A stretch of DNA of 64,000 bases from an uncultured beta proteobacterium (GTDB taxonomy: Bacteria > Pseudomonadota > Gammaproteobacteria > Burkholderiales > Burkholderiaceae_C). The stretch covers positions 43,719 to 107,718 of the forward strand of contig CAISLN010000080.1 of NCBI GenBank assembly GCA_903886275.1, written 5' to 3'. The notes under the pieces were generated by a model. It ran no database searches and was not told the origin of the DNA. It saw nothing but the letters and a program-made list of their open reading frames with translations. Every line of letters starts with the position of its first letter. Within the stretch, counting starts at the first letter, position 1. Made by a program: the position numbers and the translations under genes. Below are positions 2,778 to 30,406 of the stretch, piece by piece.

Positions 2778-3383
2778 TTATGGCTGATGCCCCTGCAGCG
2801 GGTCTAGGCGTTGGCCGCGCAGCAGGGCCAGCGGGGAGGCCCAGTACTCCTGGATGTTGTGGACAGGGTCCAGCAAAATCTTGCAGCACCAGGCCAGTCC
2901 CCACGCCGGGCTGCGAATCACAAACAGGTGCAGGGTACGAAACAGCAGGCCGCCCGCGCCCAGGGCCAGCCACAGCAGACCCACATCGTGCAGATAGCCC
3001 GACAGGCCCACGGCGGGCGCTATCAGGCCAAGCAGGCTGGGGCTCAAGGCCAAGAGCAGCGGCAGCGACAGCCAGACCGCAATCAGGATGGTCTTGCGCC
3101 GCATGTTAAAGCCCACCTTGATGTCTTCCTTGTGCGCGTAACTGGTGTTGTTGATGGCGTCAAAACCGCGTGGCTCGAAAAAAATATGGCCGCTCTGGCG
3201 CGTCACCATACCCACCGCCCAGCCCACCAGACCTGCGCTCGCCGGGTCTACAAACAGCAGCGCATAGGCCACCAAAAAGCTGATGGCGCTGAGGAGGTGC
3301 AGGCTCTGGTTGATCCGGCACTGGTGGTAATAGCGGTGGTCGTCCCACTGCAGTTGTTGTATTTTTTTCCAGAAATCGCGCAT
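2778..3383 (-). CDS. Mpo1/DUF962-like membrane protein
   Basis: YYHQCRINQSLHLL and RQSGHIFFE His motifs with hydrophobic helices; start at ATG 3383. Confidence 0.6.
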   Translation of the reverse strand: MRDFWKKIQQLQWDDHRYYHQCRINQSLHLLSAISFLVAYALLFVDPASAGLVGWAVGMVTRQSGHIFFEPRGFDAINNTSYAHKEDIKVGFNMRRKTILIAVWLSLPLLLALSPSLLGLIAPAVGLSGYLHDVGLLWLALGAGGLLFRTLHLFVIRSPAWGLAWCCKILLDPVHNIQEYWASPLALLRGQRLDPLQGHQP

Positions 3384-3451
3384 CGGTTTACTCCTTGGGT
3401 CCAGTTGAAAGGCAGTGCGGCTGCACCTGCAAACCAATGTAAAAAGCCCCT

Positions 3452-3469
3452 GTGACAGTGCGGTGAATC
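3452..3469 (-). promoter_or_regulatory. Putative Pho box
   Basis: Minus strand GATTCAC-cgca-CTGTCAC, 11-nt period, 68 nt upstream of the Mpo1-like gene. Confidence 0.45.
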
Positions 3470-3517
3470 GCTCCGTGATGCCTGCATGACTATTGCGCCA
3501 CATCAATGGGGAGGCGT

Positions 3518-3535
3518 CTGACATCAAAGCTTCAT
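3518..3535 (+). promoter_or_regulatory. Putative Pho box
   Basis: CTGACAT-caaa-GCTTCAT; very similar (15/18) to the site at 14197-14214. Confidence 0.65.
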
Positions 3536-3622
3536 GCGGCGAACCTAAGCTGCACTCAGTCGTTCATTTCGAGCGGCGCTGCGAGGTTCCCTTTGAAATA
3601 CCAAGTTGAAAGCGCATACCCC

Positions 3623-3814
3623 ATGCTGGGTCCGCTGCTGCCCGAGGGGGGCGTACGCGAGCTGCGCCTGAATGACCATGCGTTGGCGATTGCCGTTGCA
3701 GCCAAGAGCGTGACCCTGCCCTATGGCCAGGAAATCCGCGTGGTGCACTGCGTCTCGGGGGAGGTTATCTTTCGCAAGACCGCGACCACCATCGCCCCGC
3801 AGGGGGACGAATGA
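3623..3814 (+). CDS. Small hypothetical protein (63 aa)
   Basis: MLGPLLPEGGVRELRLNDHALAIAVAAKSVTLPYGQEIRVVHCVSGEVIFRK; GC-rich codon pattern; downstream of a Pho-like box. Confidence 0.55.
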   Translation: MLGPLLPEGGVRELRLNDHALAIAVAAKSVTLPYGQEIRVVHCVSGEVIFRKTATTIAPQGDE

Positions 3815-4439: not shown

Positions 4440-6176
4440 TCAGCTGTAGCTGACCGCAAGGTTGGAGGCTGCGACCGTCACCGTCTTGCCCACCGCGCCG
4501 GCGTAGGTCTTGGACTGGATGCTGTCCACAAACACAAACTCGCCCTTCACATTGGCAGCGCTCACCGTCATCAGCAGGTAGCCCCGGCGCATCGTGTCGG
4601 AGTAGTTGACATCGCTGATCAGGCCCATGCCGGTACCGTTGACGCCCTTGGTGAGCAGGGTGCCGTCAATGGTGGAGGCCAACCCGCCCAGGCCGGCGCT
4701 TTCATAGCCCGGTGCGGTGACCGAGCTGGTGGCGAACTCCACGCCGATCTGGGCCGTGCCGTCCAGCGACTTGAGGTTGTTGAACCAGGCGTTGTGCGAG
4801 TCGCCCGACAGCACCACCAGCTTTTTGCCGGTGGCCTTGACGGTTTGCAGCAGGGTTTCGCGCTGTATGGGGTAGCCATCCCAAGAGTCCATATTGATCG
4901 GGATCTTGGTTTCGGTGCGCGCGCCGCTCAGGTAGGTGGTCACAGCCGTGGTGAAGGCGGCCGTGCCCTGGGCAAAGGCGGCCACAACGGACTGCGGGTA
5001 CCACAGCTTGGCCATGATGTCCTGGTTGCCCACGATCTGCCAGGTGGTGGTGGCGCTGGCAATGTTGCCGGTCAGCCACTTGAACTGGGTGTCGCTGATC
5101 ATCTTGTTGGCTGCATCCGGATAGACGCCGTTGGTGAGCGTCAGTCCGGCCGCATAGTCGGCCCAGTTATAGGGCTGCACCTTGGCATCAAACGGGTCGC
5201 CGTAATAGCCATAGACCTGCTTGGTGCGGCCCTCGATGCGGGTGTCTAGCATGTGCAGACTGAACAGGGTGCCGAAGTCAAACTTGCGGTAGATCTTCAA
5301 GAGGTTGCTGGCATCGGGCGTGCGAATCGGCATCCACTCGTGGTAGGCCTGTGCGGCCACCGCCTTGCGTGCGGACCAACTGCCTTGGGTTGCGATATCG
5401 TGGTTTTGCGCGCCGTCCATATAGGCGTTGTTGGCAAATTCATGGTCGTCCCAGATCGTGATCCAGGGCATCTTGGCGTGCAGGGCCTGCAGGTTGGCGT
5501 CCAGCCGGTACTGCGCGTAACGGCTGCGGTAGTCGCTCAGGCTGACGATGTCGTTGGCCGGCGTGACCACGCGCCCCAGGGTGACCGCAGTGACCTTCGT
5601 GTTGGTGGCATCGGTGTTGCCGAACTTGGCTGGGTCGGAGCCGTATTCGTAAATGTAGTCACCCAGGTGGATGGCAAATTGGGCGCCGGAGTTGAGCGCG
5701 CTGTCGTACACATTGAAGAAGCCGGCCGAATACAGGGTGCAGGAAAACACCGCAAACTTCACCGAGGTGGCCACAGCCGAGGGCAGGGTGCGCGTGTTGC
5801 CCACTGGCGACGCGTTGCCTTGCGCATCGATGAAGCGGTAGACGTAGCTGTTGTCCGGGGCCAGGCCGGTGGCATCGACCTTGGCAGTGTTGCCTGCTGC
5901 CATGCTGGCGGTCACGGTGCCGGCGCTGATGATGTTGGCAAAGGCGGCGTCGCTGGCGACCTGCCAGCTCAGGGCGACATCGCCCTCCTGGTCGGGGCGC
6001 TTGGCATGGGTCCACAGGATGATGCGGTCGGCCAGTGGGTCGCCGCTGGCCACGCCATAAAGGAATTGAGCCGGCGTGGTGCTGGAGCCGCCACCGCCGC
6101 ATGCGGCAAGGCCTGCCGAGCCACCGATGGCGGTAAGCGTGGTGGTCAAAAAATTGCGTCGGGTCGGGTGCGTCAT
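4440..6176 (-). CDS. phoD: Alkaline phosphatase D, Tat-exported lipoprotein
   Basis: TRRNFL Tat motif, LAAC lipobox, GVASGDP, HLGDYIYEY, WDDHEFANN, LDTR, DSWDGY, SGDSHN. Confidence 0.92.
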   Translation of the reverse strand: MTHPTRRNFLTTTLTAIGGSAGLAACGGGGSSTTPAQFLYGVASGDPLADRIILWTHAKRPDQEGDVALSWQVASDAAFANIISAGTVTASMAAGNTAKVDATGLAPDNSYVYRFIDAQGNASPVGNTRTLPSAVATSVKFAVFSCTLYSAGFFNVYDSALNSGAQFAIHLGDYIYEYGSDPAKFGNTDATNTKVTAVTLGRVVTPANDIVSLSDYRSRYAQYRLDANLQALHAKMPWITIWDDHEFANNAYMDGAQNHDIATQGSWSARKAVAAQAYHEWMPIRTPDASNLLKIYRKFDFGTLFSLHMLDTRIEGRTKQVYGYYGDPFDAKVQPYNWADYAAGLTLTNGVYPDAANKMISDTQFKWLTGNIASATTTWQIVGNQDIMAKLWYPQSVVAAFAQGTAAFTTAVTTYLSGARTETKIPINMDSWDGYPIQRETLLQTVKATGKKLVVLSGDSHNAWFNNLKSLDGTAQIGVEFATSSVTAPGYESAGLGGLASTIDGTLLTKGVNGTGMGLISDVNYSDTMRRGYLLMTVSAANVKGEFVFVDSIQSKTYAGAVGKTVTVAASNLAVSYS

Positions 6177-6273: not shown

Positions 6274-6291
6274 CTGTCACCCAATTTTCAT
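6274..6291 (+). promoter_or_regulatory. Putative Pho box
   Basis: CTGTCAC-ccaa-TTTTCAT, 62 nt upstream of ATG 6354. Confidence 0.55.
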
Positions 6292-6353
6292 CCTGCTGCG
6301 CAATCATGGTGCTGCGGCGCTTTGCCGCGACTCCCCAACTTTGCGAGACAACC

Positions 6354-6653
6354 ATGAATCAAGACACCCAGCATGAGATTGAGATTGTTCCCCCAAGCGA
6401 TGCGTTTGAAGACGAATTTGAAACCATTGGGGATTACCACCGCAAGGCAGCCCACCATTTCGCTGAGGCTGCTAAGCACCACCTGGCCGCTGCCGACGCG
6501 GATGAAGACGGTGACGAAGAGGCGATGGACCTGCACGCCTTCAAGGCCTACCGCCACCAGCTCAATGGCGTGCAGTGCGCAGAGATCGCAGTGATGGAAA
6601 GCGAAACTGACGAGACCGACGAAGCAGGCGAAGAGGCAGCGGTCAGCGCCTAA
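6354..6653 (+). CDS. Small acidic, His-patterned helical protein (99 aa)
   Basis: MNQDTQHEIEIV...HRKAAHHFAEAAKHHLAAADADEDGDEE...; 3' end of track ORF 5253..6653, real start ATG 6354. Confidence 0.7.
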   Translation: MNQDTQHEIEIVPPSDAFEDEFETIGDYHRKAAHHFAEAAKHHLAAADADEDGDEEAMDLHAFKAYRHQLNGVQCAEIAVMESETDETDEAGEEAAVSA

Positions 6654-6914: not shown

Positions 6915-7751
6915 TTAGGCGAGTGCAATGACAGCACCATTTTTTTGGCGTTGCAGGGCGGGCGTGTGGACAAAGGCGATGCTGAGCCAGACCGCGATGC
7001 TGAAATACAGCGACATCCAGAGCACCTCGGTTTTCCAGACCTGCCACTGCTGCGACACCACCCATCGGCCCGAGGTATCGAGCAGGCCCTGGCCCAGGCT
7101 CAGGTAATGGCGTCCACTGGCTTCATCGGCCAGCCAGCGCGACCAGTACATGGGCACATCGACCAAAAACATAAAGGCCACATAGGCAATGCCGGTCAGG
7201 CCCATGGCCAAGAGCATGGGCTTCAAGCGGGCGTTGGCGCGCGGCCACAGCGACAGCAGGCTTGCCACCAGCAGCGCGGCCGCCAGACCCCACAGCGACT
7301 CTTCGACGACATGGCCAATGTTGGAAGTGGTGAGCACCGAATACCAGGAGCAGGTCTCGGCCACCACGATCAGCGGCACCACCGACAGCGCCGCCAAGCG
7401 GGCCGGTCGGCTTTGGGTGACCTGGGAAATTTCGCGCATCAAAAGCGCCCACTGGGTGACAAAACACAGCTCGGCTACGGTGGCTACCGAGCGGCCCACC
7501 AGCACGCTCGACAGCCAGGTGTCAAACAGGCAGATGCGCTGCACATCAAATACCGGCAGCGCCGAGCGGTAGGCGCAGCCCAACACATAACCGGCCGACA
7601 AAAACAATTGCAGGCGGCGCGACGCGTAGACGTCGGCGGGAATTACGGTTTGCTTTTGGCGCAGCACGCGCGCCGAATAGGTGAGCGCGAGCACGTTGGC
7701 CGCGCTGACTGCGCAGAGCAAAAACCACCACACAAAAACTTCTGTTGACAT
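6915..7751 (-). CDS. Hypothetical polytopic membrane protein
   Basis: About 7 hydrophobic segments carrying intramembrane polar residues (ELCF, AETCSWY, GHVVEESLW, VDVPMY). Confidence 0.75.
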   Translation of the reverse strand: MSTEVFVWWFLLCAVSAANVLALTYSARVLRQKQTVIPADVYASRRLQLFLSAGYVLGCAYRSALPVFDVQRICLFDTWLSSVLVGRSVATVAELCFVTQWALLMREISQVTQSRPARLAALSVVPLIVVAETCSWYSVLTTSNIGHVVEESLWGLAAALLVASLLSLWPRANARLKPMLLAMGLTGIAYVAFMFLVDVPMYWSRWLADEASGRHYLSLGQGLLDTSGRWVVSQQWQVWKTEVLWMSLYFSIAVWLSIAFVHTPALQRQKNGAVIALA

Positions 7752-7839
7752 ATGTTTTTCTTCCCTTTTTTTACCAATTATTCTTTAATGTATACGATAC
7801 AGATCGTTTTGCAAGCGGGCATACCCTTGGTCCTGAACA

Positions 7840-7868
7840 ATGTCATGCAACTGCCATGCCGGCATCAC
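7840..7868 (+). promoter_or_regulatory. Putative Pho box array (3 half-sites)
   Basis: ATGTCAT-gcaa-CTGCCAT-gccg-GCATCAC, 35 nt upstream of ATG 7904. Confidence 0.6.
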
Positions 7869-7903
7869 ACAATGGCCCAACACATCCACTCGATCGGACC
7901 TGC

Positions 7904-8122
7904 ATGTACAAAGACGAGACCACCGAAATTGCCGCCACCGGCCTGCGCTACACCTACAAGGAGGCCGGCTCACCCTTTCAGGGAATGGGCAGCAACGGCG
8001 AGGTGCGCAGTTGCCTCAAGTGCGGCCAACACAAGGCCAGGACCCATGGCGCCATCCACCGCTTCCTCGATGGGCTGATGTTTTTCTGCTTCGACTGCCG
8101 CCCCAAAAAGCTGCCGCAGTAG
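7904..8122 (+). CDS. Small zinc-ribbon-like protein (72 aa)
   Basis: Two CxxC pairs: RSCLKCG and FFCFDCRP. Confidence 0.65.
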   Translation: MYKDETTEIAATGLRYTYKEAGSPFQGMGSNGEVRSCLKCGQHKARTHGAIHRFLDGLMFFCFDCRPKKLPQ

Positions 8123-8346
8123 GGCCGCAACAGCCCATGCATTTTTACCGCAGCACGCCAACCACGTTGGCAGACGCGGGACGGTGTGGCGCTCCGATTC
8201 GGTAGGTGGAGGACCGGGTGCAGCCCGGTCTGGGAGGGGGCGGGAAGGACGGAAAGGGGCGTGCCACGGCGGACTGCGTCCGACGTGACTGGATGCCAAA
8301 CCTGAGTGCCACATTGTGGGTACGCCGCTGCCAGCGGCGCAGCGCT

Positions 8347-10188
8347 TTAAGGCATGGCGCCCAGCAGCAGCGTGGGCAACCAGGTGGCTGTGGCAGGCAG
8401 CAGGGCAATCGCCAGCGTGCCCAAAAATATGGCCAGCAGCGCGGGCAGCACGGCCACGGCCACATAGCGCACCGGCTTGTCAAACATGGCCGAGGCAAAG
8501 TAGATGTTCATGCCGGCCGGTGGGCACAAAAAGCCCAGCTCCATATTGGCCAAAAAGATGATGCCAAAGTGCACCGGGTCTATGCCGTAGCTCATGGCCA
8601 CCGGCAGCAGCAGGGGCACCAGCACCACCAGCGCGGCAAAGATTTCCATCAGTGAGCCGGCGACAAACAAAAACACATTGAGCACCAGCAGGAACACCCA
8701 TTTGTTGGGGATCACGCCCTGCACCCAGGTGATGGCGGCGTCGGGTATGCCTGCGTCAATCAGGTAGTTGGTCAGGCCCAGCGCCATGCCCAGAATCAGC
8801 ATGACGCCACCAATGATTTGGGTGCCGTCCGAGAGGGCACCGCCCAGCTTGCGCCAGCCCAGCTCGCGGTGCGCCAGCACCTGGGTCAGGATGGCATAGG
8901 CTGCGGCGATGGCCGCGCTTTCTGTGGGTGTGGCCAGGCCGCTGACCAAGGCGCCTATGGCCACCAGGGGCGCCATGATTTCCCACTTGGCGGCCCACAG
9001 AGCCGTGGCCACGCGCGGCTGCGCGGCAGCCGATGGTGTGGCAGTGGGGGTTTGCGCCGCAGTGGCAGGGCGCTTCAAGTAGCCGCCAAACACCAGCAAG
9101 AAGGCGACCATGATGCAGGCCGGCAGCAGTCCGGCCAGGAACATGGTGTTGATGGGCACGCGCGCAATGATGGCGTACATGATGAGCGGCACCGAGGGTG
9201 CCAGCAGCACGCCCAGCGCACTGGCGCTGGTGACCAGACTGATACCGCGCTGCTCCGGAAAACCGGCGTTGCGCAACAGCGGCAGCAGCAGTCCGCCCAA
9301 CGCCAGGATGGTCACACCGCTGCCGCCGGTAAAGGCGGTGAAGGCCGAGCACAGCACGGCGCTGGCCACCACGGTGCCGGTGGCGCCCCCGCCAAAGACG
9401 GCCACAAAAACGGTGCCCAGGCGCTGCGCCGCACCGGTGCGCGCAAACACCAGGCCGGCCAGGGTGAACAGGGGCAGGGCCGGCAGCGAGGGGTTGACGG
9501 TGATCTGGTAATGCGACAGCGGGATGGAGGCCAGGGGCAGGGCGTCCTGCCAAAAGAGGGCCAGCGCCAGCGCGCCCAGCACGCTAAAAATAGGTGCACC
9601 GCACAGCAGCGCGGCCAGCAGGGCGATGACGGCCGGCCAGACCGAAAGCGCCGTGCCGTCCAACTGCCAGGCCAGGGCGATGCCTGCGAGCAGGGGCAGC
9701 AGCGCGCCCAAGCTCTTTTGCCAACCTGCCACCAGCCCCTGCGCGCCCAACTGCAGTCCCAGCAACGCAAAGCCCAGCGGCATGCTGGCCTGCAGCCACC
9801 ACACCGGTATGCCATAAGCCAAAATTTGTGCGGCCTGGCGCTCGCTGTCCACCAGACGCCAGCTCGCCATGCACAGCAGGCCGCAGACCAGGGCCGCAAA
9901 CAGCTTGCCATAGCGCTGGCTGGCCTCGGCCAGGCGCGGGTGCGCGCTGGAGACAAAGCCCTTGCCAAAGCTGCTCAGGTGGCCGTGGCGCAGCGCCGCC
10001 ACCGAACCGAACATGGCCATCACCAGGCCCAGGTGCTGCACGATGACGGGCGCGTTTTGCACGCCGCTGCCGGTCCAGGGTCGCACCAAAATTTCAACCA
10101 GCGGTATCAGCGCCATCAGCACCAGTGCGGCGCATGCCAGCAGTTCGTCCAGGCGGCGCAGGCCCTTGAAGGACAACAGCGCGTTCAT
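8347..10188 (-). CDS. TRAP transporter fused small+large permease (DctQM)
   Basis: N-terminal 4-TM DctQ-like part, then DctM motifs (FTGGSG, LLAPSVPLIMY, TPTESAA, PPAG). Confidence 0.9.
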   Translation of the reverse strand: MNALLSFKGLRRLDELLACAALVLMALIPLVEILVRPWTGSGVQNAPVIVQHLGLVMAMFGSVAALRHGHLSSFGKGFVSSAHPRLAEASQRYGKLFAALVCGLLCMASWRLVDSERQAAQILAYGIPVWWLQASMPLGFALLGLQLGAQGLVAGWQKSLGALLPLLAGIALAWQLDGTALSVWPAVIALLAALLCGAPIFSVLGALALALFWQDALPLASIPLSHYQITVNPSLPALPLFTLAGLVFARTGAAQRLGTVFVAVFGGGATGTVVASAVLCSAFTAFTGGSGVTILALGGLLLPLLRNAGFPEQRGISLVTSASALGVLLAPSVPLIMYAIIARVPINTMFLAGLLPACIMVAFLLVFGGYLKRPATAAQTPTATPSAAAQPRVATALWAAKWEIMAPLVAIGALVSGLATPTESAAIAAAYAILTQVLAHRELGWRKLGGALSDGTQIIGGVMLILGMALGLTNYLIDAGIPDAAITWVQGVIPNKWVFLLVLNVFLFVAGSLMEIFAALVVLVPLLLPVAMSYGIDPVHFGIIFLANMELGFLCPPAGMNIYFASAMFDKPVRYVAVAVLPALLAIFLGTLAIALLPATATWLPTLLLGAMP

Positions 10189-11189
10189 TTGGCGGGCAGG
10201 GCGCGGTAGGCCTTCACCTGCTTGAACACCTCGTCAAAGGTGTCGGCCGGCACCATGGTGCCGCGTATGCGCGGGTAGAGCGACTCGGCCAGCGCGTTCC
10301 ATTCCTGCATCTCTGCGGCATTGGGTTTGTGCACGATGAGGCCACGCTTTTTCATGGCCTCTACCGCCTCATCGACTTCGCGCCGCGCTTGCGCCCGCAT
10401 TTGGGCACCGGCCTTGTCGCCGGCTGCGCGCAGGGCTTTCTGGGCAGACGGCTCCATCGCGTCCCAGGCCTTGGCGGTGACCACCATGGCGCCGACTATG
10501 GGCGACCAGTTGATCTCCAGCATGTGGGGCGCGGTGTTGTAGACCTGGCTGGCCAGCGCAAAGTAGGGCGTGGAGGGCACCACATTGATCATGCCGGTCT
10601 GAATCGAGGGCAGGATGTCGGCGGTCTCCAGCGGCACTGGGGTGTAGCCCAGGCTCTTCATGATGGACTGCTGCTCCACCTCCGAGCCCCAGGCAAAGAA
10701 CTTCATGCGCTTGTAGTCATCGGGGCGCACGGCGGCCTCCTTGGAGAAAAAGCGCACCCAGCCGGCGTCGCCCCAGGCCAGCACCACAAAGCCCTTGTCG
10801 AGAAATTTCTTCTCCATCGCCGGGCGCATTTTTTCGCGCACATAGTCCAGCTCTTCCCAGCTGCGAAACAGCAGCGGCAGGTTTTGCAGGGCGCTGATCG
10901 AAGGCTCGATTTCGCGCAGCCCCACCACCGACAAGAGCGCGCCTTGGAGTTGGCCTATGCGCATGCGCCTTGCCATCTCGGCCTCGCCGCCCTGGCTGCC
11001 GTCCGGGTAGACCAGGTACTTGGAGGCGCCGCCCTGGGTCGCACGCCAGGCCTCGCCCATCTCCAGCAGTTGGCGGTGGTAGAGCGAATTCTTGGGCGCC
11101 AAGGTGCCCACGCGCAGTTGCATATCAGCGCCGTGCGCCGACAAAGTGGTGATCAGGCAAAGCAGCAGGGTGGCAATCAGTTTGGGCAT
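10185..11189 (-). CDS. TRAP substrate-binding protein DctP (TatP type)
   Basis: Signal peptide, GTLAPKNS, GSQGGE, RMRIGQLQG; overlaps the permease start. Confidence 0.9.
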   Translation of the reverse strand: MPKLIATLLLCLITTLSAHGADMQLRVGTLAPKNSLYHRQLLEMGEAWRATQGGASKYLVYPDGSQGGEAEMARRMRIGQLQGALLSVVGLREIEPSISALQNLPLLFRSWEELDYVREKMRPAMEKKFLDKGFVVLAWGDAGWVRFFSKEAAVRPDDYKRMKFFAWGSEVEQQSIMKSLGYTPVPLETADILPSIQTGMINVVPSTPYFALASQVYNTAPHMLEINWSPIVGAMVVTAKAWDAMEPSAQKALRAAGDKAGAQMRAQARREVDEAVEAMKKRGLIVHKPNAAEMQEWNALAESLYPRIRGTMVPADTFDEVFKQVKAYRALPAK

Positions 11190-11224
11190 GGAGTTCTTGC
11201 GGGTGAGGGACAGGCTTGCAGGTC

Positions 11225-12139
11225 TTAAAACAAATCGTCGGCATGGGCCAGCAACCACAGTGCGCGCTCGCGCATCACGCTGTTTTGCAAGCCGGGGTGC
11301 TGGGCGACCACGGCCAGCGCCTGTTGCAGCAGGGCCTCGAAAGCGGCGCGGTCGCCAGCGGGCAGGGCCACGCCCTCGGCCTTGCCCACCAAGGGGCCTG
11401 CGCTGCTGGCGCCACCGAGTGCAATCGCTTGGTCAAAGTAGCGCAGCGCGATGGCGCTGTTGCCACCCGGTCGCGCCGCCTCAAAGCTGGCCATCAGAGA
11501 GGCCAGGGCGCCCTGGCCATAGTCGGGCTGGCGCGCATAGGCAAGAGATGCCAGGCGCAGCGCCAAGGGCAGGTCTGCGACGGTGTCGGGCTGGTCCTTG
11601 GACAGTGAGATCAGGCCACCCCAACTGGCAGCGGCCCAATAGGCCAGGGCGACTTGCTCGCTCTTTAATTGCAGCCGGGTGTCGGTGTTCTCCAGCGACT
11701 TGCGAAAGCCCGGCTGTGCGCGCTCCAGCGCGGCCATGGCGTGGCGGTGGGCGCGCGCATAAAGCCGCGCAGCACGTTCGCGCAGGGCCTGCGCGCCTCG
11801 GCTGTCGCTGGCCTCCAGTCGCTCGGCCTCGAAGGCGACAAAGGCATAGGCGTATTGGGTGAAGCCGCCTGCCACCGCAGCGGACAGGGGCAAGTTGTCG
11901 GGCACCTCGCGCAGCAGGGCCTCGGACAGCTTGAGGTAAAACGCGCTGGCCTCACGTGCCAGCACCAGATCGTCCTCGGGCGCCTGGCCCTGGGCTGCCA
12001 ACTCGCCGGCCATGCCTTGAACGATCAGATGGCGCGCCGAGCAGGCGCTCAAACTGAGCAACAGCAGGCACAGGCCCAGCGCGCGACACCAGGTCCGGCG
12101 GATGGCCCACAGGCCTGGATGCACAAACAATAAAGGCAT
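11225..12139 (-). CDS. TRAP transporter T component (TatT), lipoprotein
   Basis: LSAC lipobox, helical TPR-like body (FTQYAYAF, YWAAASWGG); directly upstream of dctP-dctQM. Confidence 0.8.
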   Translation of the reverse strand: MPLLFVHPGLWAIRRTWCRALGLCLLLLSLSACSARHLIVQGMAGELAAQGQAPEDDLVLAREASAFYLKLSEALLREVPDNLPLSAAVAGGFTQYAYAFVAFEAERLEASDSRGAQALRERAARLYARAHRHAMAALERAQPGFRKSLENTDTRLQLKSEQVALAYWAAASWGGLISLSKDQPDTVADLPLALRLASLAYARQPDYGQGALASLMASFEAARPGGNSAIALRYFDQAIALGGASSAGPLVGKAEGVALPAGDRAAFEALLQQALAVVAQHPGLQNSVMRERALWLLAHADDLF

Positions 12140-12228
12140 GGATTGTGAGCCAGCAAGGGCCTTGGGGGTCGCGTGCCAGCTGCTGCAGGGCTGCGGCTGG
12201 TTCAAGGCGCCCAATGTAGCCCCGCTGC

Positions 12229-12246
12229 ATGAAGCTTCGGTGACAG
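12229..12246 (-). promoter_or_regulatory. Putative Pho box for the TPAT operon
   Basis: Minus strand CTGTCAC-cgaa-GCTTCAT, 89 nt upstream of the tatT ATG. Confidence 0.65.
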
Positions 12247-12387
12247 TGATGCGACCCATCTGCTGCCAATTGCAGAAACTAACGCTAAAAAAATCAAATG
12301 TGTACACTCATTCGTTCATCAGCGGTCGCTTGGCGAACGCCGCCGAATCGTCGCATCGCCGGCTTGTTTTTTTCATTGGGAGGTACC

Positions 12388-14136
12388 GTGACCTTTTTGC
12401 AAAAACTGACCATACGCGCACGCCTGCTGTGCGCCTTTTTGGCCTCTGTGCTGATCACGTTGTTCGTGGGGCTGATGGGCATCAACACCATCTCTGAACT
12501 CAGCGCCGCCACCGACGACATGTACCAAAACAACCTCATCCCCATCAAGGACGTGGCCAATGCCAATATGCAGGCCATCTACCTGAACCGCAGCCTGTAT
12601 GACTACATCATCGAGGAGCAAAAATCCGGCATGGACAAGATCAAGCTGCGCATCGATGAGCACCACAAGCAGTACAGCCAGCTGATGGATAAGTACCGCG
12701 CCACCGAACTGACGCCTGCAGAAAAAGAGCTCATCAACAAGGTGGATGCCGAGTGGCCGCCCTACCTGGCTGCGGCCGAAAAGGTGATGAAGCTCTCTTA
12801 TTCCGACCAGAACAAGGAGGCCTATGCGGCCATGAACGAGGAGGCCAAGAAGACCTTCCAGGTGCTCGATGACCACTTGAGTGAACTGGTGGATTTGAAC
12901 GCCAAGATTGGCGAGACCACCAACAAGGAGTCGGCCGCGCGGGGTGCGAGCATTCGCACGTACACCATAGGCGTCATCGTGCTTGCGGCGGCTGTTTGCA
13001 TTGGCTTGGGTCTGGTCATTACGGCCAGCATTACCCGCCCTCTGCAAGACGGCATCCTGTTCTCCAATGCGGTGGCGGCGGGCGACCTGACGGCCAGCGT
13101 CGATGCCCAGGGCCGTGACGAGGTGTCGCAGCTGATGCGGGCCCTGTTGGCCATGCGAGATGGCCTGGTCAAGGTGGTGTCCACGGTGCGCGAGGGCTCT
13201 GAGAGCGTGGCGAGCGCCAGCTCCCAAATTGCCCAGGGCAATAGCGATCTGTCGGCGCGCACCGAGCAGCAGGCCAGCGCGCTGCAAGAGACCGCCTCCT
13301 CGATGGAACAACTCAGCTCCAGCGTCAAACAAAACGCCGACTCCGCACGCCAGGCCAATCAGCTGGCCACCAGTGCCAGTTCGGTGGCCCAAAAGGGCGG
13401 GCAGGTGGTGGGCCATGTGGTGGAGACCATGAAGGGCATCAACGAGTCGAGCCGCAAAATAGCCGACATCATCAGCGTCATTGACGGCATTGCCTTTCAG
13501 ACCAATATCCTGGCGCTCAATGCGGCGGTGGAAGCGGCCCGCGCCGGTGACCAGGGGCGCGGCTTTGCGGTAGTGGCCTCCGAGGTGCGTGCGCTGGCCG
13601 GGCGCAGCGCCGAGGCGGCCAAGGAGATCAAGGGCCTGATCAATGCCAGTGTCGAGCGCGTCGAGCAGGGCACCACCCTGGTGGACGAAGCCGGCGAGAC
13701 CATGACCGAAGTGGTGGGCAGCATCAAGCGGGTCACCGACATCATGGGAGAAATCAGTTCGGCCAGCGCCGAGCAGGCCACCGGTGTGGCACAGGTGGGC
13801 GAAGCGGTCACCCAGATGGACTCTGCAACCCAGCAAAATGCGGCGCTGGTGGAAGAAATGGCGGCCGCAGCAAAGAGTCTGAACGCGCAGGCCGGCGATC
13901 TGGTGGATACGGTCGCCGTGTTCAAGCTCGGCGCGCAAGACGGTATTGTGCGGGCCCAGGTGCGCGCTGCGCCGCCCAAGGCGGCACAAGTGAAGAACGA
14001 CGAGCGCCGCGCTGGCGCCAAGCCAGCAACACGCAAGCCTGCGGCCGCGCCCAGTGCCCTGGCGGCACCCAAGCCCGCAGCGCCAGCGTCCAAGGTTGCG
14101 ACCGGTGCCGCTGATGGAGACTGGGAAAGCTTCTAA
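12388..14136 (+). CDS. Methyl-accepting chemotaxis protein (4HB sensor, HAMP)
   Basis: GGGAGG RBS then GTG; two TM helices; signalling motif [34 protein letters not shown]; C-terminal pentapeptide DWESF. Confidence 0.93.
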
Positions 14137-14150
14137 ACCGGCAGCGGTGC

Positions 14151-14182
14151 TGCACCAGCCCCACCCATGAGGCGCTGGTGCA
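14151..14182 (+). terminator. Hairpin after the MCP gene
   Basis: TGCACCAGC...GCTGGTGCA, 9-bp inverted repeat. Confidence 0.45.
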
Positions 14183-14196
14183 ATGGATGGCAGGGA

Positions 14197-14236
14197 TTGA
14201 CATCAAATCTTCATGGGACTGCCATGAACGGGTCAC
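14197..14236 (+). promoter_or_regulatory. Putative Pho box array (4 half-sites)
   Basis: TTGACAT-caaa-TCTTCAT-ggga-CTGCCAT-gaac-GGGTCAC upstream of olsB-plcP. Confidence 0.7.
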
Positions 14237-14259
14237 GCCGGATTTCGACAATTTCCGGT

Positions 14260-15075
14260 ATGAACACATTGCACGAACCCTCCCAACAAGCGCGCGACAA
14301 GGTTGTTGCGCAGGCGGTCACCCGCATCGAAGTTTCCAAGACCGCCCTGCACGGCATCGAAGTGTCCTGGGCCAAGCACCAAGACGAGGTGCGCGCTGCG
14401 CAAAAGCTGCGCTTTGATGTGTTTGCCGGAGAGATGGGCGCGCGCCTGAACACCTCGGTGGCAGGCCACGACGTGGACCTGTTTGACAATTACTGCGAGC
14501 ATCTGCTGGTGCGCGACCAGGCCACCGGCCAGGTGATTGGCACCTACCGCGTGCTGACCCCCGTGCAGGCCAAGCGCGTGGGCAGCACCTACAGCGATAC
14601 CGAGTTCGATCTGACCCGTCTGCGCATGCTGCGCGAGCGCATGGTGGAGCTGGGGCGCAGTTGCGTGCACCCGGACCACCGCCACGGCGGCGTCATCATG
14701 GCGCTGTGGGGGGCGCTTGCCGAGTTCATGACGCGCAACCAGCTCGACACCATGATTGGTTGCGCCAGCATTCCCATGCTGCACAACGGCGTGGTCAGCG
14801 GCGATGTGGCGGCCAGCATCTGGCGCCAGTTGCAGGCCACCCATCTGGCACCGATTGAATACCATGTGCGCCCGCGCCTGCCGCTGCCGGTGGAGCGCCT
14901 AGACAGCAGCCTGTGCGTGGAAGCACCGGCGCTGATCAAGGGCTATTTGCGCCTGGGTGCCAAGGTGCTGGGCGCGCCGGCCTGGGACCCGGATTTCAAT
15001 ACCGCCGATCTGCCCATGCTGATGCGCATTGCCGATCTGCCCTCGCGTTACCGCAAGCATTTTTTGGGCGCTTGA
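14260..15075 (+). CDS. OlsB-like GNAT amino-acid N-acyltransferase (ornithine/amino lipid synthesis)
   Basis: AQKLRFDVF, DVDLFDNYCEHL, GTYRVL, ELGRSCVHPDHR, PALIKGYLRLGA, DPDFNTAD. Confidence 0.8.
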   Translation: MNTLHEPSQQARDKVVAQAVTRIEVSKTALHGIEVSWAKHQDEVRAAQKLRFDVFAGEMGARLNTSVAGHDVDLFDNYCEHLLVRDQATGQVIGTYRVLTPVQAKRVGSTYSDTEFDLTRLRMLRERMVELGRSCVHPDHRHGGVIMALWGALAEFMTRNQLDTMIGCASIPMLHNGVVSGDVAASIWRQLQATHLAPIEYHVRPRLPLPVERLDSSLCVEAPALIKGYLRLGAKVLGAPAWDPDFNTADLPMLMRIADLPSRYRKHFLGA

Positions 15076-15951
15076 ATGCGCGGCGCATCGGAGGCATTGA
15101 TGGGCGCCTTGATGGGGGCTGACGCAGACCCCGACGAGGACAGCCCAAAGCGGCGCTACCGCGCGGTGTTCATCTCCGACATCCATCTGGGCACGGCAGG
15201 TTGCCAGGCCGATGCGCTGCTGGACTTTATGAAGCACCATTCCAGTGACTACCTGTACCTGGTGGGTGACATCGTGGACGGCTGGCAGTTGCGCCGGCGT
15301 TGGTTCTGGCCACAGGCACACAACGATGTGGTGCAAAAGCTCTTGCGCCGCGCCCGCAAGGGCTGTCATGTGGTGTTTGTGCCGGGCAACCACGATGAGT
15401 TTGCGCGCGGCTTTGTGGGCCACAAGTTTGGCGACATCGCGGTGCAGCGCGACACCGTGCACACCACTGCCCTGGGTGTGTCGCTGTGGGTGACGCATGG
15501 AGATTATTTTGACGGCGTGATCCAGTGCGCCAAATGGCTGGCCTATCTGGGCGACAACGCCTATGAGTTCACGCTCAAGCTCAACCGCAGCTTGAACAGT
15601 TTGCGCGCCCGCATGGGCCTGCCCTATTGGTCGCTGTCGCAATACCTCAAGGGCAAGGTCAAGAGCGCGCTCAACTATGTGACCGATTTTGAAGTGGCCG
15701 TGGCCCGCGAGGCCAAGCACCGAGGCCATGACGGCGTGGTCTGTGGCCATATCCACCGCGCCGAGATGCGTGACATCAACGGCATTTTGTATTGCAACGA
15801 TGGCGACTGGGTGGAGAGCCGCAGCGCCCTGGTGGAGCATCTGGACGGCCGCTTGGAGATCGTGTTCTGGGATGAACTGATCGCCAAGGATGCCAAGGAC
15901 GCCGCAGCAGCAGCGCTGGTGCCGCTGCTGGGCTTAAGCGCAAGCGCATAA
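15076..15951 (+). CDS. PlcP-like metallophosphoesterase (phospholipase C; often annotated UDP-2,3-diacylglucosamine hydrolase)
   Basis: ISDIHLG, LVGDIVDGW, WPQAHNDVVQK, PGNHDE, HGD, CGHIH, NDGDWVES; starts immediately after the olsB-like stop. Confidence 0.75.
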   Translation: MRGASEALMGALMGADADPDEDSPKRRYRAVFISDIHLGTAGCQADALLDFMKHHSSDYLYLVGDIVDGWQLRRRWFWPQAHNDVVQKLLRRARKGCHVVFVPGNHDEFARGFVGHKFGDIAVQRDTVHTTALGVSLWVTHGDYFDGVIQCAKWLAYLGDNAYEFTLKLNRSLNSLRARMGLPYWSLSQYLKGKVKSALNYVTDFEVAVAREAKHRGHDGVVCGHIHRAEMRDINGILYCNDGDWVESRSALVEHLDGRLEIVFWDELIAKDAKDAAAAALVPLLGLSASA

Positions 15952-16729: not shown

Positions 16730-18775
16730 CTACTTCTTGCGTGTGGCTGGCAAAAACCCCGCTGGCAGTACCACGCCGTTGGCCGCCTGTGCCAGTTTGA
16801 AGAACACATCGGTGTTGTCCTGCACGCCGGTAAAGCTCCAGGCGCCCGGGCCAAAGGCCGACAAGGGAATGTCGGTGGCGGTGTGCACGGCGCTGTCGCC
16901 CGGCACCTGTCCGGTCACCAAAAATTTGCCCTCGGTGTCACGGTTCATGGGGCCTGCCGGATACACCGACAGAGGCTCTTTTTTCACAAAGGGCTGCTGG
17001 CTGTCTTGCAGCGGTCTGTCATTGGTGCGGTAGTCTTCATAGCGGTCGGCATTGGCGCCGTAGCCCACCAAGATGCGGTTATCGATGTCGGTGGTTTCCG
17101 GGTAGCCATCAGCGGCCATTTTGTATTTGGGGAAACCAGCCTGCTCGTAAATGCCCACCACCTTGTCGCGCAAGTTGGCCACGCCACCCTCGCGCACCAG
17201 CTCTTGCAGGCGCGCATCGGTCACGCGCGAGCCGCCAATCAGGGCCGCGCCCGAGCACTCATGGTCGGCGGTGACGATGACCAGCGTGTCGCCGTGCAGC
17301 TTGGCAAAGGCCTGCACGCGGGCGATGGCGCGGTCGAACTCAATGGTGTCTAGCAACCAGCGTTCGGTGTCCATGTTGTGCGCCTGCTTGTCAATCGATG
17401 CCCCTTCGACCATCAGCACAAAGCCCTTCTTCTGGTGCTCCAGCACGGCCAGGGCCTTGTCGGTCATCTCATCGAGCATGGGCTGGTCGGGCAGGCCGTA
17501 GTCATCGACCACGCGTCCGTTGATACCGCGCGCCTTGTTGCGCCGACCGTCAATCTTGTCCAGCGCCACATTCATATTGGAGTGGGCAAACAGGCCCAGC
17601 AGTCGCTCGGTCTTGGCCGGGTTGATGGCATCCAGCGCGGTCTTGTCGGCGGCGTAAGTGAAGCCGGCCGATTGGAATTCGCCCATCAGGTCGCGCTCCT
17701 TGTCCATGGCGCCGGGGGCTGCGCCCCAGCGCTTGACGATCTCGCTGGTGTGCAGATCGGTGGCCGAGAAGGCGTAGTCGGTCTTGTCGCCACGGGCCGA
17801 GCCGGGCATGTTGGCCGGCACAAACCATTTGCGCCCGCCACCCATCAGCACCGTCAGGCCGGTGAGCTTTCGGTCGTCCAAAAATTGGTCCACGATGCCG
17901 GTGCCCGCGCCGCGTGCGCTGGTGTGCACCGCGTTGGCGGCCGGGGTGGCATCAAACACATCGGCCGTGGTCACCAGGCCCAGCGCCTTGCCCTGGGTGC
18001 GGTGCAGGTATTCGCTCAGGTACTCGATGCGCGGGTTGTCAAAGGGGTCGGTGGTGTCGTCGGGGAACACGCCCTCTTCGTTGTTGTTGTTCTTGTTGCC
18101 CGAGGCATAGCTGCTCATGCCGGGGGCCGAGTCGGTCACCACCGAGTTGAGCGAGGAGGTCTTCACCATGCCGGTCACCGGAAAGGTGTCCATGGCCAGC
18201 GGCGTGATGGTCTTGCCCTGTGCATAGCCGCCCGCGACGATGCGCGCGCCGGTGCGCTGGGCCGCACCCATGCCGTCGCCCAGCATGATGATGATGTTCT
18301 TGACCTTCTGGCCACCGGCGAGCAGGGGCACGACTTCGAAGTTGCCGCTGGCGCTGACCGATTGGCCGTCGCTTTGTGTGGCCGTCACCGTCACGGTATG
18401 CACGCCGGGCTTGCTGGCGCTGAAGGCACGCACTGTGGCGATAGTGGCGTTGGTGGGCACGCTAGCCAGGCAGCCCGTTGCACAACTGCGCAGCGCTACC
18501 GTCGCGTCCACTGTCTTGCCGTCGATGGTGAAACGGGCGGCTGTGATGGTCTTGCCGGCCTCGTCGGGGCGCAGCGTGGCCTGCAGGTCAAAGCGCTGAC
18601 CGGGCAAAAAGCGGGCGATCAGCGGTGCGGCATTGCCCGTTGAAAACAGTTCGCTGGGCGGAGTCAGGCGGCTGACCGTGGGGGCTGCGATGGCGTTGTT
18701 CGAGGCGATGGCCAGCAGCGTGGCCGAGGCCAGCAAGGACAGCCTGGCGCTTTTCAAATAAGGGGTGTGTGTCAT
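16730..18775 (-). CDS. PhoA-family alkaline phosphatase with N-terminal Ig-like extension
   Basis: Signal peptide, IMLGDGMG, VTDSAPG (catalytic Ser), DATPAA, MVEGASIDKQAH, VTADHEC, VHTATD. Confidence 0.88.
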   Translation of the reverse strand: MTHTPYLKSARLSLLASATLLAIASNNAIAAPTVSRLTPPSELFSTGNAAPLIARFLPGQRFDLQATLRPDEAGKTITAARFTIDGKTVDATVALRSCATGCLASVPTNATIATVRAFSASKPGVHTVTVTATQSDGQSVSASGNFEVVPLLAGGQKVKNIIIMLGDGMGAAQRTGARIVAGGYAQGKTITPLAMDTFPVTGMVKTSSLNSVVTDSAPGMSSYASGNKNNNNEEGVFPDDTTDPFDNPRIEYLSEYLHRTQGKALGLVTTADVFDATPAANAVHTSARGAGTGIVDQFLDDRKLTGLTVLMGGGRKWFVPANMPGSARGDKTDYAFSATDLHTSEIVKRWGAAPGAMDKERDLMGEFQSAGFTYAADKTALDAINPAKTERLLGLFAHSNMNVALDKIDGRRNKARGINGRVVDDYGLPDQPMLDEMTDKALAVLEHQKKGFVLMVEGASIDKQAHNMDTERWLLDTIEFDRAIARVQAFAKLHGDTLVIVTADHECSGAALIGGSRVTDARLQELVREGGVANLRDKVVGIYEQAGFPKYKMAADGYPETTDIDNRILVGYGANADRYEDYRTNDRPLQDSQQPFVKKEPLSVYPAGPMNRDTEGKFLVTGQVPGDSAVHTATDIPLSAFGPGAWSFTGVQDNTDVFFKLAQAANGVVLPAGFLPATRKK

Positions 18776-18794
18776 GGTGTTGGAGGCAGGTTGT

Positions 18795-19331
18795 TCAGTG
18801 GATGTGTTGCTGGGCGTGCAGGTAGTTGCTGACTTCAAAGGCATTCATGCCGCGTGTGGCTGCGTTGCCCATTTGCAGGCGCACCCAGGAGACGCGGCCA
18901 TCGGACTCTTCGAGGCGGCCCACGCTGAGTACACCGCTGAGCTCGATCAGGCCGCGCTGGTAGGGAATGGCAAAGCCCTGTTGTTCGGGGTCGAGGTAGA
19001 CCATGGCCCAGGCGGCGGGCAGGTCATCTGCGTCGCCATCGGCTTGCTCACTCATGCGCACCGGGCGCGGCGTGAGCATGAATTTCCCCAGTGCCGCTCG
19101 CTCCTGCTGCACCATGTAGCCGCTCAGGCGCACCAGCTTGCCGTCGGCCTGCAGCAGGGCCGGTGTCAGCGCAAGACCCTTGTTGCCCAGGGGCAGTTGG
19201 AAGAAATCGGCAAAGCGCAGCAGCGTCGGTGCGGTGGTGGTGGCCGGCAGGGGCTGCGCGAAGGTGGGCGTGGCCATGGCCAGCAGCAAAAAGGCGGCGC
19301 GCCAGAGGGCAGGGGGTCGCAATTTCACCAT
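18795..19331 (-). CDS. Exported DUF3299-like (OB-fold-like) protein
   Basis: Signal peptide; ADGKLVRLSGYMV...KFMLTPRP pattern; 20 nt upstream of the phosphatase start. Confidence 0.55.
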   Translation of the reverse strand: MVKLRPPALWRAAFLLLAMATPTFAQPLPATTTAPTLLRFADFFQLPLGNKGLALTPALLQADGKLVRLSGYMVQQERAALGKFMLTPRPVRMSEQADGDADDLPAAWAMVYLDPEQQGFAIPYQRGLIELSGVLSVGRLEESDGRVSWVRLQMGNAATRGMNAFEVSNYLHAQQHIH

Positions 19332-19335
19332 GGCC

Positions 19336-20133
19336 TTAGCTCGCCTGCACCAGCGCCAGCAGCTGGGCGCGGATTTTTCCGTGCGCGTGCAGGGCCAGCG
19401 ATTTGCGCGTGTGGCCCAGTGCCACCACGCGCTCGCCTAGATGCACGCGTGCCTCTATGGTGGAGCTGGCCATCACCCGTTTGAGCGATTGCGCCAGCGT
19501 CATGTCGCCTATGAAGTGCGCCGCCGTTGCGGCCTCTCCGGTGGCACTGTCGATGTAGTGCAGCGTCAGCAGTTGCACCTCGCAGCGGGCGCGGATGGCG
19601 CTTTCAAAGATGTTGGCGTGGAAGCTGCCCAGTGCGCTGCCATCGCTGCTGGTGCCCTCGGGAAACACCACGACCGCATAGCCCTGCGCAATCGCACTGG
19701 CCGTGTCTTCCACCATGGCGCGTGCCGAGCGGGCGGAGGCGCGGTCCACAAAAATAGTGGCGCAGGCATGGGCCAAATAGCCCACCACCGGCCAGTGCCG
19801 CACTTCACGTTTGGCCACAAAGGCGCCGGGAATGAGCGACTGCAGCACCAGCACGTCCAGCCAGGACAGGTGGTTGCACACCACCAGGCCGGCAAAGTCA
19901 GGCGGCGCCGGCTGGCTGCACTGCACCTTGATGTGGAGCGTGGCGAGCACCGCCCTGGCCCAGCGCTGAATCGCCGCCAGCCTTTGCGCCTTGTTCCAAT
20001 CCGCAAAACGCAGTGCGACCAAAAGCGTTCCGTGGCCGAAGTGGGCCGCAATGCGCAAGGCCTTGTAGGCATCGCTCAGGCCGGCAGAGACGCGTGACAT
20101 GCGTGGGGGCAGTGCGAGCAGGGGGACTGGCAT
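19336..20133 (-). CDS. Lysophospholipid acyltransferase, PlsC/OlsA family
   Basis: CNHLSWLD, FVAKREV, IFVDR, VFPEGTSS; GGAGG 7 nt before ATG 20133. Confidence 0.88.
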   Translation of the reverse strand: MPVPLLALPPRMSRVSAGLSDAYKALRIAAHFGHGTLLVALRFADWNKAQRLAAIQRWARAVLATLHIKVQCSQPAPPDFAGLVVCNHLSWLDVLVLQSLIPGAFVAKREVRHWPVVGYLAHACATIFVDRASARSARAMVEDTASAIAQGYAVVVFPEGTSSDGSALGSFHANIFESAIRARCEVQLLTLHYIDSATGEAATAAHFIGDMTLAQSLKRVMASSTIEARVHLGERVVALGHTRKSLALHAHGKIRAQLLALVQAS

Positions 20134-20175
20134 CGAAACGCCTCCGATCAAAAGCCGCAAGCGTAGAGGGCTTGT

Positions 20176-20193
20176 GTGACAGCAGGGTGTCAG
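20176..20193 (-). promoter_or_regulatory. Putative Pho box for the acyltransferase-DUF3299-phosphatase operon
   Basis: Minus strand CTGACAC-cctg-CTGTCAC, 42 nt upstream of ATG 20133. Confidence 0.7.
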
Positions 20194-22457: not shown

Positions 22458-22649
22458 GCGCCGGGCGCTTTGTCTAGCACATTTCAAAAAACGATCTGCA
22501 TCCTTTTTGAGCACCGGCCGCCAGGCCAATAGGCATGCGGGTTTGGGGTAGTTACGCAGAAGTTATCCCCAGCTCCACGCACAGTTTCTGGGGACACAAT
22601 GGCGCAGTGGCAGGGCACAAAGCCCGTAACCCCGCCGCTGCCCAACCCG

Positions 22650-29943: not shown

Positions 29944-30114
29944 TTTTCTCTCCTCTGACTCGATTTGGCCCCAATTTTGCTCTAACTGTGAACGGCAGCT
30001 TTTGGGCGAGTCCGGGCACCCCTTTGGTTGAACTTTTGGTTTTAAAACTGACGGTTGGCAGACCGCCCCCATGACCGGAATTGGGCGGGCAATTTGAATT
30101 TCTGTAGACCCGCT

Positions 30115-30216
30115 AACGCTGCGGACTTGACTTACGAAATTTCTCCGTGGCCGTCGGTAATGGATCTATACGAGACCTCCACGGCCAAAACCTCAATGAC
30201 TGCAAACGCGGCAGTC
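30115..30216. repeat. Right flank repeat elements of the sacsin-like island
   Basis: Two segments inverted relative to 24264-24313; internal hairpin GACTGC-aaacgcg-GCAGTC at 30198-30216. Confidence 0.75.
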
Positions 30217-30406
30217 CTGCCGACCAGAGAACAGTCGCGTGTGACACCCATGGGTCGAACGTGTGAATTGGAAAAAAATAGCCACGACCACTGACACCCC
30301 CGCCTTCAGCGCCACTTCCTGCGGCTATCCAATTTTCCCGGCAACTACCGATCCGGCCCGAGGGCGATGGATGGTGCGCTTGCTTCGAGGGATGCCGTGC
30401 AGCGCT

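Follow-up and report, generated by a model that had tools for sequence, protein, structure and literature searches.

The window analysed here is a stretch of 64,000 nt (positions 43719-107718 of contig C80) from a 5.19 Mb draft genome of 61% G+C. The source is a freshwater Rhodoferax-type bacterium, whose relatives are named in public records as Rhodoferax or Comamonadaceae. The window carries tatT, dctP and dctQM, the genes of a tetratricopeptide repeat (TPR)-protein-associated TRAP (tripartite ATP-independent periplasmic) transporter, or TPAT, and a putative phosphate-regulon (Pho) promoter upstream of tatT (Table 1). About 2% of TRAP transporters are TPATs, a group that is well characterized structurally. 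An earlier note on this DNA had read the three genes as an operon apparently controlled by the phosphate regulator PhoB. The operon is borne out by the spacing of the genes: tatT and dctP are separated by 35 nt, dctP and dctQM overlap by 4 nt, and judged by this layout and by the conserved gene order described below the three genes are one operon.

The orthologues that were compared come from 80 public tatT loci (Rhodoferax, Limnohabitans, Rhizobacter, Leptothrix, Aquabacterium, Zoogloea, Gallionellales and others), and the T-P-QM order is kept in 77 of them. TatT orthologues with 54-82% identity are found in these loci and in 16 of the 36 other genomes of the genus; with the source genome counted, the TPAT is an accessory trait of the genus (17/37 genomes). 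Cultured carriers of the operon are Rhodoferax lacus IMCC26218 (locus L041, 78% TatT identity) and Rhodoferax sp. BLA1. Across the phylum TatT is rare (nine of 401 sampled genomes).

Table 1. Features of the tatT locus and its surroundings (window coordinates; aa, amino acids)
Feature	Position	Strand	Description	Matches and remarks
tatT	11225-12139	-	T component, TPR-like, 304 aa	PF16811, E 7e-50; 170 bits (cut-off 26.5)
dctP	10185-11189	-	Periplasmic binding protein (dctP / tatP(T)-like), 334 aa	PF03480, NF037995
dctQM	8347-10188	-	Fused dctQM membrane component, 613 aa	PF04290 + PF06808; TIGR00786 above cut-off
Pho-box-like 22-mer	12225-12246	-	CTGTCACCGAA GCTTCATGCAG, two 11-bp direct repeats	Core 18-mer CTGTCACCGAAGCTTCAT at 12229-12246
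Predicted -10 hexamer	12213-12218	-	TACATT	6 nt past the 22-mer; no -35 element
PhoD phosphatase	4440-6176
Methyl-accepting chemotaxis protein (MCP) gene	12388-14136	+	Between tatT and olsB	Pfam MCPsignal, 4HB_MCP, HAMP
Pho-box-like site before olsB-plcP	14197-14218	+	TTGACATCAAATCTTCATGGGA	16.3 and 16.2 bits
olsB-like	14260-15075	+	N-acyltransferase	PF13444, NF052554
PlcP-like	15076-15951	+	Metallophosphoesterase	PF00149
PhoA-like	16730-18844	-	Alkaline phosphatase
OlsA-like	19336-20160	-
olsA-like / hypothetical / phoA-like operon	16730-20193	-		Strongest Pho box of the window, 20172-20193

Proteins of the operon

The membership of tatT-dctP-dctQM in the TPAT family is solid, and the identity of the genes, the match of the TatT fold and the replacement of a ligand-binding arginine in the P subunit are all shown in silico. 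TatT has the N-terminus of a lipoprotein (MPLL…LSLSAC, with the lipobox LSAC and Ser at +2). Its best PDB sequence match is Tp0956 of Treponema pallidum (E 4e-21; a profile of 16 orthologues gives 7e-29). An AlphaFold2 model (pLDDT 87.3, pTM 0.81) is all-helical, with 15 helices, and Foldseek places the T. pallidum structures 3U64 and 4DI3_A at the top of its matches (TM 0.83, rmsd 2.4); palmitate-bound TatT of Enhygromyxa (8G52, TM 0.72) and the sterol-binding protein BstC (7T1S, TM 0.68) are further matches. The fused membrane component has its DctQ domain at residues 25-148 and its DctM domain at residues 188-599.

DctP is closest in sequence to Tp0957, or TatP(T), among the PDB entries (3u65 and 4di3_D, E about 1e-20). 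No paralogue of DctP was found in the source genome at E<1e-6, and the residue that corresponds to Arg147 of SiaP, the conserved Arg that binds carboxylate, was thus read from pairwise alignments with PDB entries: Phe165 of DctP is matched by this Arg in 4N15 and 4NGU, whereas Tp0957 has Ala there. According to Fischer et al. (PMC4646407), the Arg is missing from about 3% of DctP-type proteins, most commonly with Phe in its place, and the Ala of Tp0957 lies in a hydrophobic pocket; the ligands of TRAP binding proteins without Arg147 are non-carboxylate or hydrophobic (PMC4646407). The signal peptide of DctP is cleavable (…LSAHGA/D) and has no lipobox. Only the T component is thus predicted to be a lipoprotein, not both T and P as in T. 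pallidum, and the double-lipoprotein trait probably holds for the spirochaete system and does not define the family.

Promoter of tatT

The core of the box, CTGTCAC-CGAA-GCTTCAT (12246 to 12229, minus strand), lies exactly 89 nt before the ATG of tatT, where the earlier note had placed it. That note called the box near-consensus, which is generous: the first half-site (CTGTCAC) is a perfect match to the Escherichia coli consensus CTGTCAY, but the second (GCTTCAT) has three mismatches. With the predicted -10 hexamer, transcription would start near 12205 and leave a 5' untranslated region of about 65 nt. The spacing from box to -10 is identical at three promoters of the source genome, those of pstS (TAGAGT), olsA (TACGCT) and the gene divergent from pstS (TACGCT); the pstS promoter reads ATGTCACATCC TTGTCACAAAA-TGTTCT-TAGAGT. 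Direct repeats of TGTCA in an 11-bp phase, in place of the -35 element, are the hallmark of PhoB. A scan of 8000-12500 found no sigma-70 -35/-10 pair, and no riboswitch or other Rfam RNA element was found in 7800-14400.

The genome encodes a PhoB equivalog (TIGR02154, 317.5 bits against a cut-off of 296.2; contig C50, 49151-49810) downstream of pstSCAB-phoU, and about 15 full-length OmpR-family paralogues. Sites of the form TGTCAY-N5-TGTCAY, with no more than one or two mismatches, lie upstream of a PhoX-like gene, PPK2, a GT4 glycosyltransferase gene and a phnC-like ATP-binding cassette (ABC) ATPase gene; others precede an HD (PhnZ-like) gene, a corA-like gene, the olsA-phoA operon and a small acidic open reading frame (ORF) at 6354-6653 in the window. 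As the match of the tatT box to the E. coli consensus is not significant, the source organism's own sites were used instead. With a matrix built from 11 of its Pho-type sites, the tatT box scores 14.3 bits and ranks 69th of about 10.4 million positions, and approximately 0.002 such sites would be expected by chance, in the correct orientation, in the 248-nt intergenic region. The reciprocal matrix was built from 52 orthologous tatT sites with the source genome excluded. On the 5.2-Mb genome it ranks the tatT box first (22.1 bits), and its top 25 sites include the boxes of the acidic ORF, phnC, the phnZ-like gene, olsB, the corA-like gene, pstS and the gene divergent from pstS. A matrix derived from tatT sites only thus retrieves Pho-type boxes, which puts the tatT motif and the Pho-regulon motif in the same family. 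The variant second repeat of the tatT box, yCTTCAY, is shared with the boxes of phnC, the phnZ-like gene and olsB. Counting sites of at least 12 bits that are followed by TAnnnT gave nine in the genome against about six to seven by chance, so that the count itself is no proof; only the top scorers of that scan are meaningful, and these are olsA, pstS, the pstS-divergent gene and tatT.

The promoter is also conserved. The 370 nt in front of tatT contain a same-strand site of at least 14 bits at 60% of the 80 loci, compared with 1.4% of 3772 control windows drawn from the same loci. When 63 unique promoters were anchored on their best site, the information content was close to zero outside TGTCA, TTCACA and TAnAnT. 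The hexamer TAnnnT, which is not in the matrix, stands exactly 6 nt past the 22-mer in 56 of the 63. Across the 80 loci the box goes with the operon through differing gene contexts, and not with the neighbourhood. It is by the organism's own Pho boxes, the -10 spacing and the conservation in orthologues, and only by these, that the box exceeds chance, and as sequence evidence they are convincing. In silico support for the PhoB control that the earlier note had proposed is good: a matrix specific to the organism, an architecture like that of the pstS promoter and the footprint over 80 loci make it likely.

Surroundings of the operon

The setting amid phosphatase and lipid-remodelling genes is as the earlier note described it, with PhoD, OlsB-like, PlcP-like, PhoA-like and OlsA-like proteins encoded nearby. 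In the closest relatives (loci L024/L046, L042 and L045) tatT is directly divergent from olsB-plcP, with two back-to-back boxes, one for each direction; the same arrangement of tatT and olsB boxes is seen at locus L008. The MCP gene is absent between tatT and olsB in these closest relatives, and in the window no Pho-like site faces it. Recurring neighbours among the 80 loci are PlcP-like (nine loci), OlsB (nine), OlsA (eight), PhoA (eight) and an Mpo1-like membrane protein (13), together with PhoD, a GT4 glycosyltransferase, PPK2, a glycerophosphodiester phosphodiesterase (GDPD), a phosphatidylserine-decarboxylase-like gene and a major facilitator superfamily transporter. An S33/lysophospholipase-type hydrolase gene follows dctQM directly in some loci. 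The surroundings vary from locus to locus, with, for example, a 3-deoxy-D-arabino-heptulosonate 7-phosphate synthase gene at the operon.

Several small genes of the window recur beside TPAT operons elsewhere. The acidic ORF (6274-6653, plus strand, with its upstream site; reading frame 6354-6653) encodes a very acidic, His/Ala-rich protein of 99 aa with no Pfam family and is preceded by the window's strongest Pho box of the tatT type, CTGTCACCCAATTTTCATCCTG, of 22 bits; its homologues adjoin TPAT operons at loci L067 (directly after dctQM), L038 and L023. A membrane protein of 249 aa (2778-3527, minus strand) gives a weak match to Mpo1 (DUF962), the family that recurs near the TPAT in 13 of the 80 loci. 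A Pho-type site with a -10 (CTGACATCAAAGCTTCATGCGG-CGAACC-TAAGCT; 3518-3539, plus strand) faces a small unannotated ORF at 3506-3814. A multi-pass membrane protein of 278 aa (6915-7751, minus strand) and a Cys-rich protein of 125 aa (7745-8122, plus strand), neither with a Pfam match, accompany the TPAT/PhoD cluster in the closest relatives (L023-L025, L042 and L046).

Upstream of the window, in the region 20000-37000 of contig C80, the genes for a GT4 glycosyltransferase (21320-22597) and PPK2 (30214-31158) have Pho boxes, and a divergent phnC-like / HD (PhnZ-like) pair has back-to-back boxes at 35919-36000. With these further Pho-boxed genes on the contig, the phosphate-stress genes are clustered over more than 45 kb. 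Within the window, an ORF at 24463-30072 (minus strand, 1869 aa) has Sacsin-type and NOV_C domains and a G+C content of 52-60% against flanks of about 65%; it may be a horizontally acquired or defence-type gene. At locus L127 (G350:C41, 4188-12485), from a distant proteobacterium of 66% G+C, a TPAT operon lies approximately 3 kb from olsB-olsA, with rhomboid, aminopeptidase and elongation factor P genes between them; this closeness is probably coincidence.

Cargo, competing explanations and related systems

The earlier note regarded the substrates of TPATs as largely unknown, which is out of date: the TatT proteins of Enhygromyxa salina (PDB 8G52) and T. pallidum bind long-chain fatty acids (Zhai et al. 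2023, as summarized in PMC11713862). A hand-over from TatT to TatP(T) and on to TatQM has been proposed (reviewed in PMC5812351), and plcP/agt and olsB are established PhoB targets (PMC4796936, PMC13700237). By analogy with these TatT ligands, the most likely cargo of the present system is a lipid tail or a fatty acyl compound, which fits the fold of TatT, the replacement of Arg by Phe in the P subunit and the recurrent synteny with olsB, plcP, olsA and GT4. The suggestion of the earlier note that the operon imports a phosphorus-bearing or lipid-derived solute is thus retained for its second half; nothing indicates that the ligand carries phosphorus.

We favour, with moderate confidence, a model in which a PhoB-switched TPAT imports a fatty-acyl or lipid-tail compound. 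The PhoB-type direct repeat (TGTCAC-N5-CTTCAT) would take the place of the -35 element, 6 nt upstream of the -10. At low phosphate, phosphorylated PhoB would switch the operon on, along with the genes nearby for phosphatases and for lipids free of phosphorus. The TatT lipoprotein would take a hydrophobic molecule of fatty-acyl type from the periplasm or the outer membrane and pass it to the Arg-less P subunit, and the DctQM symporter would import it. The cargo would most likely be a free long-chain fatty acid or another lipid tail that is left when phosphate is stripped from the cell's own or exogenous phospholipids. By taking it up, the cell would recover acyl chains for ornithine lipids and glycolipids and clear detergent-like products. 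PhoB binding, induction, the identity of the ligand and the direction of flow are the parts of this model that we infer. A wider proposal, which is possible but on the doubtful side, is that in freshwater Burkholderiales a TPAT induced by PhoB supplies the transport arm so far missing from lipid remodelling under phosphate stress. TatT, anchored in the outer membrane, would then draw fatty acids or lyso-lipids out of that membrane or the periplasm, or from exogenous phospholipid stripped by PhoD, PhoA or GDPD, and the Arg-less P subunit would feed the lipids inwards to be rebuilt as ornithine lipids and glycolipids.

Several results weigh against the model of a PhoB-switched lipid importer. 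At the promoter, the E. coli Pho consensus with up to three mismatches gave 20 matches in the window against 14.6 expected, which leaves the box at chance level and makes that scan uninformative as evidence; with the own-genome matrix, 58 sites outside the 11 training sites score at least as high as the tatT box genome-wide. Seven remote TPAT loci in other Proteobacteria (23-29% TatT identity), in which the T-P-Q-M order is kept, have no credible box. As to the cargo, fatty acids carry a carboxylate, but the Arg that usually binds this group is absent from the P subunit. No conserved fourth gene that would pin down the ligand, such as one for an acyl-CoA or acyl-ACP synthetase, was found among the 80 loci. 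The TPAT (17/37 genomes of the genus) does not track the PlcP-like gene (36/37): the latter is near-universal and the former accessory, and a phylogenetic profile of the two shows no correlation. The lack of a box in the remote loci implies that Pho control is a trait of this Burkholderiales clade and not of TPATs generally. The operon is a new TPAT, specific to this clade, whose predicted Pho-regulon promoter is well supported.

The cargo of a PhoB-controlled operon could instead be an intact phosphorus-bearing amphiphile (a lysophospholipid or lyso-phosphatidic acid) that serves as a phosphorus source, or a hydrophilic organophosphate. Predicted membership of the Pho regulon and the phosphatase genes that adjoin the operon are consistent with this, as are the GDPD and lysophospholipase-type hydrolase neighbours in some loci, and the TatT pocket could take one acyl chain (PMC11713862). 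We nevertheless consider such a cargo unlikely, an intact lysolipid less so than a hydrophilic solute: no feature that points to phosphate binding was found, the sole canonical anion-binding Arg of the P subunit is now Phe, hydrophilic organophosphates would misfit a hydrophobic TatT pore, and the genome already has Pho-boxed transporters of the phnC and pst types. Phosphonates and glycerophosphodiesters, which the earlier note had also named, are unlikely cargoes, and the source genome has a separate Pho-boxed phnC-type ABC system.

The remaining alternatives concern the promoter and not the cargo. The conserved repeat might be bound by another regulator of the OmpR/PhoB family, for example one that responds to lipid or envelope stress, so that the operon would not be phosphate-regulated. 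The number of OmpR-family paralogues in the genome leaves room for this, and the second repeat of the tatT type prefers TTCACA where pstS, phoX and olsA use TGTCAC. We find it improbable, however, as TGTCAY-N5-yTTCAY also stands before typical phosphate-stress genes (phnC, the phnZ-like gene, olsB and the acidic ORF), the tatT-derived matrix retrieves pstS too, and the TGTCA repeats show the phase and position that mark PhoB. It is more improbable still that the box arose by chance or is a relic, with the operon constitutive or carbon-regulated: this would explain the chance-level match to the E. coli consensus and the TPATs elsewhere that have no box, but it would leave unexplained an independent -10 at a fixed spacing in most of the unique promoters and the excess of high-scoring sites over the control windows. 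That the box, which lies inside the 248-nt divergent intergenic region, serves the divergent gene (MCP or olsB) was rejected as hardly credible, since the orientation of the box and the -10 face tatT, olsB has its own box, and the tatT-oriented box is kept in relatives that have no MCP gene and at loci with unrelated upstream genes.

For the proposed PhoB-switched lipid importer, the nearest known system is the TPAT of T. pallidum (TatT Tp0956, TatP(T) Tp0957 and TatQM; PDB 3U64 and 4DI3), reportedly described by Deka and coworkers and by Brautigam and coworkers in 2012. The two share the order of T, P and fused QM, a TatT lipoprotein, a P subunit without an equivalent of Arg147 and the fold of the T component. 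However, their identity is only approximately 29%, the present P subunit, with Phe instead of Ala at the Arg position, is no lipoprotein, and the present host is free-living and makes its own lipids. A Pho-type promoter is found here, whereas none is described for the spirochaete system. TatT of E. salina with palmitate has the same fold and gives an experimental basis for a fatty-acid ligand, but it is only 17% identical to the present TatT, whose fatty-acid ligand is proposed by analogy. BstC of Methylococcus capsulatus shares the TatT superfamily fold and binds lipids; unlike the present protein, it works with a resistance-nodulation-division exporter and not with DctPQM, and it binds sterols (PMC10942540). 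The genes plcP/agt and olsB (PMC4796936, PMC13700237) have the same type of promoter and in close relatives lie next to tatT or diverge from it; their products are not transporters but enzymes of the cytoplasm or the inner membrane. EtoX of Phaeobacter (PMC10132767) is likewise an Arg-less TRAP binding protein and imports a phospholipid breakdown product, the ethanolamine headgroup, under phosphorus stress, but it has no T component and a hydrophilic ligand, and the best matches here by structure or sequence do not include it.

No paper that links TatT or TPAT with phosphate limitation or the Pho regulon was found in the library searched, and the papers found on the lipid-remodelling response deal with enzymes only and assign no transporter to the pathway. 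We know of no physiological role shown for TPATs beyond the idea of lipid scavenging by spirochaetes. The conserved, predicted phosphate-starvation promoter and the recurrent back-to-back placement with olsB-plcP offer a concrete condition under which TPAT function could be examined, low phosphate, and a concrete pathway, the replacement or scavenging of phospholipids. The TPAT would add a transporter to the bacterial lipid-remodelling response. If the wider proposal of a transport arm is true, TRAP transporters would gain a new physiological function and a TPAT of a free-living bacterium would have a role assigned for the first time. The finding is of moderate interest because the physiology of TPATs becomes directly testable.

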